A DNA stretch of 62,146 nt, counting the filler, from Circinaria calcarea (taxonomy: Eukaryota): assembly GCA_051942165.1 (NCBI GenBank). It is 5 parts of 5 records of this genome, joined end to end, with 100 filler letters (N's around TTAATTAATTAA, not from the genome) between each part and the next. Parts side by side here need not be neighbours in the genome. Positions count along the whole stretch, not along the records: positions 12,457 to 24,809 come from JAVECS010000577.1; 4 more parts are not named here. One strand, written 5' to 3'. This document shows positions 17,738 to 23,147 of the stretch, one piece after another (the first letter of the stretch is position 1; each line of letters opens with the position of its first letter). Made by a program: the position numbers and the translations under genes. Below the pieces are notes generated by a model. That model was not told the origin of the DNA and searched no databases. It worked only from the letters and a program-made list of their open reading frames with translations.

Positions 17738-18242
17738 TTATCCGGAGCGAGAGTTGAAGAAACGCCTGATAATGTCCAACAGGCCCGATTTCCCATGCAT
17801 CATGGGATTGTCCATAGTAACCCAGTGGGTGTGAAAGCTTCCCTTGCTCAGATCGTTCAAGTCGAGATAAAGTGGGCCAGTAGGTTTCTGAGAACATGTC
17901 AGCGCAGTACTCTTGATGTTTCTTGGACCGGTATAAAGCATACCCAACCATTCGACAGGCCATCGTTACTGTAACTGGTCACCCACTGACCCCTAGTGCT
18001 AGTAGTGTCGAGAGTTGGTCCTTGAGCTGGACCCTCGTCTCCCAGTCTGTTCGGTCCATGATGGCCAGAAACCTTGCAAGCGTCTCTGTTAGTCGGTGTG
18101 AGGTGAAATGAAAGGAGGAGAATGCAATGCAGGACGCGCAACCGTTTACCTCAGCATTGCTTATCCTGTTCGACGGGGCAATCGCCATAGATGCTGCGAG
18201 GGCAGAGCAAGCTGTAACTGGGATGATGATAGTAAGTTTCAT
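17738..18242 (-). CDS. Small secreted protein (about 123 aa), candidate RiPP precursor
   Basis: Exons 18242-18150, 18072-17944, 17887-17738. Intron 1 is GTAAAC..CTAAC..AAG, intron 2 is GTATGC..CTGAC..CAG. Product MKLTIIIPVTACSALAASMAIAPSNRISNAE-VSGHHGPNRLGDEGPAQGPTLDTTSTRGQWVTSYSNDGLSNGW-KPTGPLYLDLNDLSKGSFHTHWVTMDNPMMHGKSGLLDIIRRFFNSRSG. Hydrophobic signal-peptide-like N-terminus. The intron 1 acceptor is the least certain element. Confidence 0.65.
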
Positions 18243-18421
18243 TTTCGTAGTTTGAGCCTTCACTAAATCGCTATGTCGCAGACTTGATTGTATAAGGGGG
18301 TATAAAGGAGGGCTCTCCTTTCCTAGACTTTTATTTCATACAATAATGCGAGGCCCTGTGACCCAGAGATAACAGTTGAGAAATAATCGGAAGACCTAGG
18401 GATCTCTTCATGCGGCAGGTA

Positions 18422-18784
18422 CATGCAAGATAAGGTAGACAAAAGGACAAGGCGATAACAAATAAACAAATTGTATGGACAGAGTACTACGTGATACGAA
18501 GGGATTAGAAATAAGGAAGGTGGGCCTAGGTTTCTGGTGTTCCCGTGCGGGCCTCTTGTTTTCTTATTCGTCTTCACTTATCACCATCGCACTCCCCTGC
18601 CATGCAAGATAAGGTAGATAAAAGGACAAGGCGATAACAGACAAACAAATTGTGTGGACAGAGTACTGCATGGTACGAAGGGATTAGAAACGAGGAAGGT
18701 GGGCCTAGGTTTTTAGTGTTCCTGTGCGGGCCTCTTGTTTTCTTATTCGTCTTCACTTATCACTCCCCCATCGCACTCCCCTGC
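18422..18784. repeat. Direct tandem duplication of an ~180-bp unit
   Basis: Unit 1 18422-18600, unit 2 18601-18784; both begin CATGCAAGATAAGGTAGA and end CATCGCACTCCCCTGC. Confidence 0.95.
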
Positions 18785-19312
18785 CAACTGCTTAAAGTAG
18801 GAAGGGTCTCCCTCCTACCAGCTGCTACCGATAAGAGTTCCGAGATACCCTTCTTACCTCGCTTTTATAGGAAAAGTCGCAACCGTTCGGCCTTCAAGCA
18901 CATATTGATTCTGTAGCCAGAAATCTCCTACCTTCGGGAAGTCCCTCTCGCCGAGCCCATTAGAGGGTTACGCATCGAGCAGCTTGAAGTCTAGATGTAA
19001 ATCGAGGTTTGTACAAAATCCGGAGAAAATACAGCAAGCAATACAGAGAGACGGCAAACACCAAACATATGTTTTAATCGAAGTCTCCAGAGTGTGCAAT
19101 AGACGAATGCCGTATGCGCGGAAAGGTGTCGCTCCCTGGGGTATGATTGGCTCCTCGCTGCATAGTTGGCTACGACGGAGTACAAGGATTCGCGTACTAG
19201 TTAAGACTTACCTGTAGGTCAACCAAAGTGCTTATCTTTCATCGAAACATCAGCAACAGTAGATATTATCACCCGTTATTCTCAGCACTCTTTGTCTGAG
19301 ATCGTGCTAGTC

Positions 19313-20362
19313 ATGGCTAACCATAACGAAACCCAATATCTACGTCTCAGAAACATCGGTTCGCTTACTCCTCCATCAGTAGGACATGTGGCAATTGACG
19401 ATGGTGATTCGGACGCGGGGAAAGTCCAAAAGAATGTGCGCTGTAGACCGAGTCCTTTACTCGCCGTACTGCTACTCTCGGTGGGGTTAAATTGTTTCGG
19501 TGCTTGGATGGTATCCTATAAGGGGACGCGGAAAGATCACCAACTTACATATTGTGAGTACTCAAAGGTTGTTGATGACAACAACATCAACGGCCAGTAA
19601 CCATAACTAACCTCCCAAAGCACCTGCAGCACAGTTTGTCGAGTACGAACGTGTGGTATTTTCTAGTGCCTTCGGTGTACAAAACTCTGCGTTCCAAGGA
19701 AAGCCATCCGATCCCAACAATAAGTTATGGAGTGACCTTTATGACTGTGGGCTTTCTCATTTAATTACTTGAGAACTAAGCAGTGCTGATGATCTGAAGT
19801 TGGAATCACGAGGATTAGCACAGAAGAAGCGAGACCAATGGACAACAAAACGCTTCCTATCCCAGATGATAAGGGTGGATATGTGGTCCAACTTGCAGTT
19901 TTCCATCAACTTCATTGCTTGGTGAGTCCGATCGAAGCAGGAGCAGGCCCACTACAGATCTTACAAGCTTGACAGAATCTTTTAAGGAAGGGTATCTATG
20001 GTGCCGTAGACATGTCGAATGTGGACAACGTGTTTGGTATTGAGCATTTAGATCATTGTGTTGACATACTCAGACAGAGTATTATGGTGGGTTTCGTCAT
20101 AATATCCGACAATATAAAATGATAATATTGATTCTAACCAATCATACAGTGTAGTTGCGATATCACCCCTCTTACCTTCGCACGTACGTCGCTCGACACG
20201 GATATAAAAGCTGTCGCTGAGGTAGTCCATACTTGTCGAAGCTTTGCAGCAATTCAACGATGGGCATGGCAGAGACAAATCGAGAGGGAATTCGATAAAA
20301 AAATAACTGTCATCGATGATCCATTAGGCTGGGGCAGATATATCTACTCGCCGGGTAATTAA
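19313..20362 (+). CDS. DUF3328 / UstYa-like oxidase #1 (5 exons)
   Basis: N-terminal TM segment (LLAVLLLSVGLNCFGAWMV). Introns at about 19554-19620, 19747-19799, 19922-19975, 20087-20148. Motifs 'VFHQLHCL', 'EHLDHCVDILRQSIMCSCDITP', 'HTCRSF..IQRWA'. Confidence 0.93.
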
Positions 20363-20530
20363 GCAGGCTGATTGAACTTCTAGAAGAAACGGAGCCTATG
20401 ATAAGAAGTAGCTAATTGTCCGCTATATCGGGTTTTCGTAAATAATGACATCTGAATTTTGGAACTCTGGACCTTTGCAAAGTGATTTCCTAATCAATAA
20501 CTTTTTCGCTGGGCCCTGACGACTCTATCT

Positions 20531-21416
20531 CTACTGGCTCAGCTTATCTTCAGCGTAGATTCCCAATTCCGAGTCGTGTTTTTGAACCCATTCTGTGATC
20601 GCGGACATATTTCGGCACATGTGTTGCGTCGAGACGCGTGCCATAGGCTGTTGTTCGCCAACATCGGTGTAGAAAATAAGGCCAAGGTCAGCATTGCACA
20701 TAAGCACCTGGCGGAGAAGGTCGATACAATGATCTAAATCGTTTTTTCAGTAAATTGACAAACCTCGTACTATTACTGAGACTCACCAATATGCTCCCAT
20801 AGTATCTCTGGGGGGTCCCGAAACGTGTCCACGTCTTGGTAGTAATCCCGCCAGATGTATTTTCTAGTGATATCGAGGCAATGCAGCTGATGATAGACTT
20901 CAATAGTTGCGTAAAAATGCCCATCCTTACCCTTCGTCGGCCTCGGCGTTTGATCGGTGGCGAGTAAGGTCTCACGATCTACCAGGATCATAGGCTCTAC
21001 GCCGTGGACCGGTTAGATCAAGCTGTTACGGAGCCCGCAAGATGGCATAGATAATTGGAAGACTCACGATCCACTACATTGCGCCACGCATCGTCAAGCT
21101 CTTTCCTCGGCAGCCCTTTAAAAACAGACGGCGCTCCGAGCTCTGCATCGAGCATATTAAGGTGGAAGTCTGCCGGAAGTTTTAAGTGGTTCTGGATTTG
21201 GCAGCGCTCTGAGACAGGACTCGTAGGCGAAAGGGTATCTTGATAGTGACCGAACGAATATTGACTACGTCGCCAAGGGTATTGTAAGAAAAACAAATTC
21301 CCGCCCGCATCAAGCCGTAGGAGAGCCCACAAATTCAACAAAATTGCAGAAGTAAAGAGCATGATGTGTAAAAAAATCCATGGCCAGATTCGGTTGGCTT
21401 GGTGCCTGCCAGCCAT
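20531..21416 (-). CDS. DUF3328 / UstYa-like oxidase #2
   Basis: N-terminal TM segment (WIFLHIMLFTSAILLNLWALL); 'FKGLPRKELDDAW'; 'IEVYHQLHCL'; intron-split 'HIDHCIDLLRQVLMCNAD'; 'HMCRNMSAITEWV'. Convergent with oxidase #1. Confidence 0.93.
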
Positions 21417-21730
21417 AGATTTGCAGACGAGGGAGTTTTCTATTATCAGCGAAGTTGATTAAGTTGTCGAGTGCAGAAGGAGTCCAGGTGATGTCGCATT
21501 AACTATAATGGATTCACGGCTTCCCCGCTCAGAGAATCATTGGGACGGCTGCGCCCACCGGAACGGATGATGGCGCCGGTGCCTTTAATCCGAAAAACAT
21601 GGTTGGCACAGTCTGCGGTCCTGTGGATTTAGCCGTCCAATTCAGAGCGCGCACTTTACTGATATATACCTGGACAATCCTGTCGTCAGCAGAGAACGGC
21701 TTCATTGCAGTGGTGGTTATAGCGGTAGCT

Positions 21731-23147
21731 ATGAACCATAATCATGCCAACTACCAAAATCGGCTTGATTTCATCCGGCACCAATTACCACTGCCCGAGC
21801 GGTTCGATCTAAAGGTAAGATAATCCAAGTTTGCAATTATTAAAGCTAATCGAGTCCTCGGGCCCAAAGAGCGCAGATATCACCCCGATCGAATATGACG
21901 CCAATTGTCCTTTCAAGTACAATAACTTTGTATATCGGCTTCTATTACCTTCACCTACTATATCTGAAGTAGAGGCCGGTGACACGCCCTGGCAGCAGCC
22001 CGGATGCGTCGCGATTCCTGACGGTGTTACTGAATTTATCGTGCGACTCGCCAATCCCGATTCCAGTGGCATGAATAAAAAGAATCGCGTGGAGAATGAA
22101 GTAGCCATCATCAATCTCGTTGCCGCTGCTCTCAGCCATTTTGACCCGAAAGTGGTGCCGCGTGTATATGGCTGGGGCAGCGCTGCTGCCGAATCTTCGC
22201 AAGGCTGGATTCTACAAGAGCTGATGCAAGGGGTTCCGGTCGATAATGCGCTTGACGGAATGGATCTCCAAGGGAAACGGGCAATATTTGCACAAATGAG
22301 CGAGATGTTGAGCGCATTGCAGAAATATCAACTTCCTCAGAGCATCACGGGCTTTGGAGGCGTCACATTTGACGCCGCAGGTTGCATTGTGAGCGCAGCT
22401 ATGACCAGCGTTGATGCAGGACCTTGGCCTTCGTATGAAGCCTCTTATAAAGGGCGGCTGAAGGTTGCGCTCGCAAAGGCTGACGCGAGTCCATTTATTC
22501 GAGGATGGCACGCCAACGGAGTCAGGGAGCGACTCGACGCATTTGTCGAAACCGGTCTTCCTGTTCAGTTTCAATCCTTAAGCTCAAAGCAAGCCAAGGT
22601 CGTCGTACACGCCGATTTTAGTGAGTTTATCCCCCATTACATCGCCCCCGAAAGAGATTATCAAACTCACGACTGTATAGCTTGTAACAACATGCTTTAC
22701 GATCCCGCCTTACAGCGCATTACGGCGCTCCTTGATTATGACTTTGCATGCATTTCACACCCCTCTTACGAATTCCTCCGCTCTTTCGACGGCCATGGCG
22801 GTCAGTTTCGAGGCTGGTCTGGTGACGAAGACATCGACCAACTAGTGCTGCGTGAAGCAAAGCTCCGTGGCTTCCCATCGCCACTACCACAATCATCAGA
22901 GAACGGCGTGAAGTGGGAAATGGTGAAAGCATGGGAGGACGAGCTAGAGAAATCACAAGTGCAGCGCCCGAGGACTATTCAGGGGATTGAGCAGGTTGCC
23001 GACGTCGATGCCATCCTCCGAGCTATCATGCCTTGGCGAGTCACTAATTCAGATATTCTGCAGATGCAGTCCGAAGAAGTTACGGTTAAATGTAGAAATA
23101 AAGGTGAGCAGCAGCTGATCAAGATGCTCGACCGCCTAGGATTTTAA
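21731..23147 (+). CDS. Aminoglycoside-phosphotransferase (APH)/choline-kinase-like protein
   Basis: Exon 1 21731-21814, then introns starting at 21815 and at 22621-22680. 'RVENEVA', 'VVPRVYGW', spliced catalytic loop 'HADFTCNNML', and 'LLDYDF'. Confidence 0.88.

Follow-up and report, generated by a model that had tools for sequence, protein, structure and literature searches.

DUF3328 oxidases and a four-gene locus in Circinaria calcarea

It has recently been shown that fungal proteins of the DUF3328 (UstYa) family are binuclear-copper enzymes that functionalize unactivated C-H bonds (PMC12435403). These enzymes form disulfide-linked homodimers, are membrane-anchored, depend on O2 and on a supply of electrons, have a lumenal catalytic domain, and hydroxylate, halogenate or cyclize their substrates; the family motif, HxxHC(x)nHxxHC, is the copper site in CctR, the cyclochlorotine hydroxylase, a type II membrane enzyme that acts on a non-ribosomal peptide (PMC12435403). 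The clusters for ustiloxin B (ustA, ustYa, ustYb), phomopsin, asperipin-2a and victorin encode pairs of distant DUF3328 paralogs with this double motif, and in ustiloxin-type clusters the pair is adjoined by a gene for a signal-peptide protein, with an inferred location in the secretory pathway. Here we describe a locus with both of these features at positions 17738-23147 of a 62,146-nucleotide stretch of DNA, filler included, from the Circinaria calcarea assembly GCA_051942165.1 (hereinafter, the window).

In the accessible text of one survey (PMC12048977), UstYa and UstYb are described as two distant paralogs that act together, and the original five-gene definition of a dikaritin cluster is said to include a tyrosinase, methyltransferase, transporter or peptidase. 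The accessible part of another survey (PMC7329392) reports DUF3328 neighbors, at a mean distance of ~3 genes, for 22% of the genes for Kex2-processed repeat proteins (KEPs), and a KEP gene within 15 genes of 31.8% of 9399 DUF3328 genes.

The C. calcarea locus consists of four intact, intron-bearing genes, for which GT-AG splice models were derived from the sequence: a gene for a small secreted protein (17738-18242, - strand), the DUF3328/UstYa genes A (19313-20362, + strand) and B (20531-21416, - strand), and a gene for an APH-fold kinase (21731-23147, + strand). We describe the four as an accessory unit that is conserved in filamentous ascomycetes and combines a UstYa/UstYb-like pair with a secreted protein of an apparently new family and a kinase predicted to be cytosolic. 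The reading that we tentatively favor, with a probability of about 0.4, is that of a non-canonical unit resembling those for peptides synthesized ribosomally and modified post-translationally (RiPPs), in which the two oxidases would modify the co-encoded secreted protein. An earlier note on this DNA, made from the sequence alone, had proposed a RiPP cluster of the dikaritin type. The gene set that it listed turned out to be real and intact, with the small gene syntenic with the DUF3328 pair elsewhere and the kinase as a conserved partner, whereas the dikaritin type found no support. A search of the full-text literature, with subscription papers and supplements outside its coverage, found no description of a unit that joins DUF3328 proteins, an APH kinase and such a small protein.

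The DUF3328 pair

Gene A is modeled with the exons 19313-19553, 19621 (or 19630)-19746, 19800-19921, 19976-20086 and 20150-20362 (+ strand) and encodes 270 aa; gene B, with the exons 21416-21068, 20996-20787 and 20733-20531 (- strand), encodes 253 aa. Four of the five exon frames of gene A match the PF11807 (UstYa) profile, with E-values of 8e-05 to 2e-07 over profile positions 50-218 of 220 (matching frames at 19611-20362, + strand), and so do all three exon frames of gene B (E-values 0.0065, 3e-12 and 5e-16; frames at 20531-21458, - strand). The Pfam scan was run on stop-to-stop frames, with exons scored singly, so that individual PF11807 scores straddle the 25-bit cut-off. Both proteins carry two HxxHC motifs (HQLHC and HLDHC in A, HQLHC and HIDHC in B) and a single N-terminal hydrophobic segment, at about residues 49-67 in A and 14-32 in B (Kyte-Doolittle 19-residue maxima of 2.12 and 2.02, respectively). 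By these sequence features, A and B belong to the DUF3328 family, and the earlier note was right in recognizing two intact multi-exon genes of this family with two HxxHC motifs each, an assignment that the profile search confirms.

Like CctR, A and B have a membrane anchor at the N-terminus, two HxxHC motifs and conserved cysteines in the lumenal part. By analogy with the topology of that enzyme (PMC12435403), the catalytic domains of both proteins are expected to face the lumen. A sequence search of the PDB returned no DUF3328 chain.

Like UstYa and UstYb, A and B are distant paralogs (31% identity over 141 residues); the small gene is no more than 3.2 kb away from either. The ortholog of gene A on a metagenome contig that is discussed below (L001) shows 60-63% identity, and the nine closest proteins collected for gene A (31-42% identity; from basidiomycetes, an orbiliomycete, Xylariaceae and one metagenome) include no ortholog. 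Gene B orthologs are 53-61% identical over the full length. With its last exon as the query, 21 matches were obtained, and the ortholog group is tight: in the representative library, 7 matches reach 106 bits or more, with a drop to 68 bits for the one after them. The tree of B-type proteins consists of two subclades, with kinase-linked members in both.

A putative new family of small secreted proteins

The gene divergent from gene A comprises the exons 18242-18150, 18072-17944 and 17887-17738 (- strand), separated by predicted introns of 77 and 56 nt, and encodes 123 aa. Its first exon contributes 31 codons, after which three splice readings are possible; we adopted the three-exon model because homologs on L001 and in Chlorociboria aeruginascens (P0003) match it, and this model alone. 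The frame that reads through the end of exon 1 is not the one backed by homologs, so that little can be read into a search with it, confined to proteins of 47-153 aa, which gave 2 candidates, none with an E-value of 1 or below. The frames of exons 2 and 3 match L001 directly beside its gene A ortholog. Residues 18-120 of the spliced protein align with the first 110 aa of P0003 (37% identity over 108 columns, E 8e-12), and the N-terminal segment of P0003 aligns in turn with L001 (49% identity over 80 residues, E 6e-19).

The N-terminus of the protein is hydrophobic and signal-like, with a hydropathy of 2.03 over residues 3-21, and is followed by a conserved AIAPS motif. A small-x-Ala site precedes the conserved IAPS in 3/3 homologs, which gives the features of a signal peptide as judged by hydropathy. 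The divergently transcribed gene for a small secreted protein that the earlier note had seen is thus upheld by the splice model, the homologs and the hydrophobic N-terminus. Beyond IAPS comes a poorly conserved Gly/Pro/Ser-rich stretch and then the conserved blocks STRGxWVxSY, GPxxLD..L..G and HxHxxxM; an alignment of the three copies has 30 invariant columns. The mature protein of the window contains no Cys. Internal repeats were looked for in the 123 aa and none were found. Among potential Kex2 sites (KR or RR), there is one RR in the window copy and none in the two homologs, that is, no conserved site. The protein is conserved along its length, as would be expected of a folded protein or of a long single precursor.

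No Pfam family matches the small protein, and neither the corresponding frame of L001 nor residues 1-110 of P0003 retrieved a usable match from the ESM Atlas; at the sequence level, the protein appears to represent a new family. The AlphaFold2 model, built from a 6-row alignment, has a mean predicted local distance difference test score (pLDDT) of 41.5 and is uninformative. A complex prediction for two copies of a B-type lumenal domain and the small protein, in which alignments were not used, scored 0.00 and speaks neither for nor against binding.

The APH-fold kinase

The fourth gene (exons 21731-21814, 21870-22620 and 22681-23147, + strand; 433 aa) is transcribed away from gene B, and the start codons of the two are 314 bp apart. 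Its long + frame, 21819-23147, matches PF01636 (APH) with 43.7 bits against a cut-off of 23.2 (E 3.8e-11). The catalytic loop HADFTCNN, which is restored only once a 60-nt in-frame intron is removed, and a DYDF motif are both present, as the assignment to APH-fold kinases in the earlier note would lead one to expect. Across 50 relatives, the catalytic-loop and metal-binding columns are invariant or nearly so. The kinase belongs to a fungal family with many paralogs (217 homologs at E <= 0.001 among 7999 candidates scored), and the best match from a named species is that of the leotiomycete Venustampulla echinocandica, with 69% identity.

Structure was modeled for an ortholog (P0002) that is 69% identical to the window protein and not that protein itself. 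The model has a pLDDT of 90.9, and its top Foldseek matches are APH(2''), APH(4), N-acetylhexosamine kinase, 25-hydroxysteroid kinase, FN3K and choline kinase (E 4e-09 to 5e-07; TM-scores normalized to the target 0.43-0.67). The cluster kinase thus resembles the APH-family small-molecule kinases in fold and catalytic loop, but the modeled ortholog is only 10-14% identical to them and has ~100 extra residues. Going by the model, the kinase would most likely act on a hydroxyl group, that of a small molecule or of a peptide.

Linkage in other fungi

Judging a shared contig from equal contig size, at least 7 of the 13 named B-type proteins are encoded on the same contig as a kinase homolog among the best 120 of the 217 kinase matches. 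These are the proteins of Anthostomella pinea, Cudoniella acicularis, Pseudovirgaria hyperparasitica, Bombardia bombarda, Annulohypoxylon nitens, Xylaria telfairii and Nemania abortiva; Durotheca rogersii is an eighth genome with a kinase gene and a B-type gene on one contig. In all five kinase/B-type pairs that were looked up, the GenBank protein accessions are 1-3 apart; the pairs of Annulohypoxylon nitens and Xylaria telfairii are adjacent, and those of Anthostomella pinea, Bombardia bombarda and Nemania abortiva have genes in between. In Cudoniella and Anthostomella the locus tags of the two genes are 2 genes apart.

An alignment scan of metagenome contigs for B-type proteins yielded 79 DUF3328 loci, 35 of which are at least 5 kb long. 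Only one of the 79, L001 (7118 nt), has a kinase or a small protein, and it carries all four genes in the same order as the window, with the kinase inverted and with the small gene and gene A once more transcribed divergently. In C. aeruginascens, the annotated kinase P0003 has the small protein fused at its N-terminus, and therefore the small gene of this fungus lies directly upstream of the kinase gene on the same strand. Despite reshuffling, the members of the unit have stayed linked in Xylariales, Sordariales, Helotiales and a dothideomycete, which supports the view, drawn from sequence comparison, that the kinase is a conserved partner rather than a chance neighbor. Lack of synteny of the small gene with the DUF3328 pair, which the earlier note had named as a ground for refutation, is not what we observe: the gene occurs with all its partners in L001 and beside the kinase in Chlorociboria.

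Public gene models fuse neighbors in this gene neighborhood on other occasions as well. Besides P0003, the Cudoniella model P0134 joins a protein-kinase-domain protein to a B-type DUF3328 protein, and the Lachnellula model P0040 joins a short-chain dehydrogenase to an APH kinase; the latter hints at a further neighbor gene in some genomes. A weak lead comes from the accessible text of a Monilinia transcriptome study (PMC5987419), in which M. laxa shows a 9.5-fold rise in both an APH-like and a DUF3328 transcript, with the two mapping to different Botrytis chromosomes.

Proposed function and alternative explanations

If the small protein is modified by the pair, its signal peptide would take it into the secretory pathway, where it would serve as the dedicated substrate of both oxidases in the lumen. 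Within the WVxSY and HxH blocks, conserved aromatic or His residues may become hydroxylated or cross-linked by the oxidases, and the product would be a modified secreted peptide or protein; from the sequence, we infer a ribosomal peptide product. The precursor would be single-copy and would not be processed in the manner of a Kex2 repeat protein. The kinase could either phosphorylate the product, or an intermediate, at a hydroxyl or protect the producer; that it does the latter, or that it acts on a re-imported or exported product, is guesswork. We place A, B and the small protein in one compartment because the former two have N-terminal hydrophobic anchors and the latter a signal-like segment. 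A dedicated enzyme-substrate relation is favored because both oxidases and the small protein are predicted to be lumenal and because the small protein, like the kinase, is specific to this clade of DUF3328 genes, and a dedicated substrate is favored over a general helper because the small protein and the kinase accompany just 1 of the 79 DUF3328 loci.

Several observations weigh against this interpretation. The only fully syntenic relative, L001, is decaying: in its gene B, TAG replaces an invariant Trp and the last ~45 residues are missing, and in its kinase TGA stands at a conserved Trp (Trp-to-stop sites in gene B and the kinase at 4151-4171 and 2290-2300 of L001, and at 1049 of L002). L002, a 99.96%-identical contig from a second assembly, has the same TAG in gene B; gene A of L001 looks intact, and so does what is visible of the small gene there. 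The decay weakens L001 as evidence of function and suggests that the unit is a dispensable accessory. Lacking a signal peptide, the kinase would not come into contact with a substrate in the lumen. In the eight named genomes, the linkage described above is that of the kinase and the B-type gene, and for 6 of the 13 named B-type hits no contig is shared with any of the best 120 of the 217 kinase hits, several of the contigs being short. Conservation extends over most of the small protein, a pattern that a folded partner protein would also show, and in the absence of repeats or a conserved Kex2 site the protein has no known route for the release of a short peptide. Furthermore, DUF3328 enzymes are not RiPP-specific (PMC12435403, and the accessible text of PMC7329392) and act on non-ribosomal products too, and a core synthase or the true precursor could be encoded past the ends of the 12.35-kb contig.

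Among the described systems, the UstYa/UstYb-precursor core of ustiloxin-type clusters is the one that the unit would most resemble in its working. A classical dikaritin cluster of the ustiloxin, phomopsin or asperipin type, with a Kex2-processed repeat precursor cyclized by the DUF3328 oxidases, would account for two double-HxxHC genes adjoining a signal-peptide protein, and the frequent proximity of KEP and DUF3328 genes cited above is in line with it. We nevertheless do not file the locus as a dikaritin cluster because the two defining features of the precursor, a repeated core and flanking KR/RR sites, are both missing: the candidate precursor is single-copy, with a mature length of ~100 aa. 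A search for KEP-like frames flagged 0 of the 577 frames of the window. The 12.35-kb contig encodes no tyrosinase, methyltransferase, non-ribosomal peptide synthetase (NRPS) or other synthase, transporter or peptidase in the 54 + 91 frames scanned. The earlier note had stated as much for four of these functions, correctly but for 12.35 kb only, a span over which such absence is weak evidence. An APH-fold kinase is also foreign to the cluster components listed in the accessible text of the two surveys (PMC7329392, PMC12048977). Taken together with the lack of repeats, the dikaritin explanation, and with it the label given in the earlier note, appears highly improbable. The opposite extreme, in which the four genes are neighbors without a shared pathway, the kinase and the B-type gene being an old pair held in synteny through a common promoter or mere chance and the small gene encoding an unrelated secreted protein, derives some appeal from the variation in gene order and kinase orientation among the window, L001 and Chlorociboria, and from the size of the kinase family, which far exceeds that of the B-type group (217 vs. 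21 matches). When genes remain linked in spite of reshuffling, though, this usually points to selection for clustering, and here the linkage persists through rearrangements across the taxa named above; in three genomes, the small gene keeps company with differing members of the unit. We consider the chance association of these genes unlikely.

A more substantial challenge comes from the possibility that the small protein is not the substrate at all but a clade-specific accessory that handles copper or electrons via HxHxxxM, with the substrate encoded beyond the 12.35-kb contig and the kinase acting on that compound. CctR needs Cu(I) and an input of electrons, and the authors of that study expect the oxidizing lumen to hold an accessory protein that is still to be identified (PMC12435403). 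The small protein has an invariant His-x-His and Met, lacks Cys and is conserved along its length; the fold of the kinase matches kinases for aminoglycosides, hexosamines, steroids, fructosamines and choline; and the contig is short. A general helper, however, should also be found elsewhere, and none of the other 78 metagenome loci has a homolog of the small protein next to its DUF3328 genes; nor did any known metal-binding family match the small protein in Pfam or the ESM Atlas, and neither the contig nor L001 shows a synthase or transporter. On balance, such an accessory role seems rather unlikely. The more specific proposal that the His/Met protein is the very lumenal helper postulated in the CctR study, a donor of copper(I) or electrons dedicated to the pair and co-evolved with it, strikes us as decidedly speculative.

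CctR itself, despite the similarities to A and B described above, tailors an NRPS product within a large cluster, in contrast to the present contig with no visible synthase. Closer in some respects are the Clan R1/R2 DUF3328 clusters of lichens, which, according to the accessible text of PMC12048977, are likewise conserved across taxa and have no repeat precursor found, and for which the authors raise the possibility of a single-core precursor. Their accessory genes (tyrosinase, O-methyltransferase and others) differ from those described here and a kinase goes unmentioned in that text; in contrast, the present unit includes a specific candidate, a non-repeat protein conserved within it.

We know of no natural substrates of DUF3328 proteins beyond those of a handful of clusters, nor of an established route for the supply of copper and electrons to these enzymes. 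A compact four-gene system that recurs across ascomycete classes should be easy to reconstitute. If the small protein is the substrate, it would define a class of precursors distinct from Kex2 repeat proteins; if it is an accessory, it would be a dedicated helper protein for DUF3328 oxidases. Mining for dikaritin precursors by their repeats would miss a unit of this type.

The same detector of KEP-like frames flags 5 of 5672 frames in the 79 other DUF3328 loci, two of which we judged convincing. One (L034, 7862-8056, + strand) contains an EGWKR-type Kex2-like repeat and the other (L059, 6551-7432, - strand) ~10 copies of an HHKGKR-type repeat, each a few kb from a DUF3328 gene. From their sequences, both are candidate precursors of the classical dikaritin type.

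Contig context and other features of the window

The window is a composite of five pieces of ~12.35 kb separated, every ~12.45 kb, by artificial spacers of the form N44-TTAATTAATTAA-N44 (12357-12456, 24810-24909, 37261-37360 and 49705-49804). Since the pieces are joined by these spacers, the real context of the cluster is confined to 12457-24809, a contig of 12,353 nt (JAVECS010000577.1) bounded by spacers on both sides. The only other substantial frames on this contig are 12470-13075 and 13227-14645 (both + strand), for which no Pfam or PDB sequence match was found. The latter has 472 aa of ordinary composition, and the 201-aa frame that precedes it begins at the contig edge.

The flanks of the cluster, described in the earlier note as AT-rich repeat DNA, are both poorer in G+C than the cluster itself (0.416 at 16386-17737 and 0.416 at 23148-24809, vs. 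0.477), and the left one is formed by a dense field of minisatellite arrays (16386-17330; periods 12, 23, 46 and 69). This field is made up of AGCA/TAGCA-like words and yields long spurious open frames on the - strand. A transposon-like boundary was considered and rejected, the flanks sharing just a 32-nt weak inverted match. Bulk repeat-induced point mutation is not indicated either: TpA/ApT is 0.78-0.93 in the cluster, L001 and two non-repeat flanks, and 1.19 in the minisatellite field. The divergent promoter region that separates the small gene from gene A contains a tandem duplication of a 179-bp unit (18422-18786; 2.0 copies, 88-90% identical), which might double regulatory sites.

Genes for TOR, DAHP synthase, a kinesin, and HET and NACHT proteins are located on other pieces of the window and, because N spacers divide these pieces, are not shown to be neighbors of the cluster. 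Within the first piece, positions 1-9116 hold genes for a TOR kinase (FAT, FRB and PI3/PI4-kinase domains) and for DAHP synthase, both of an ordinary housekeeping look.

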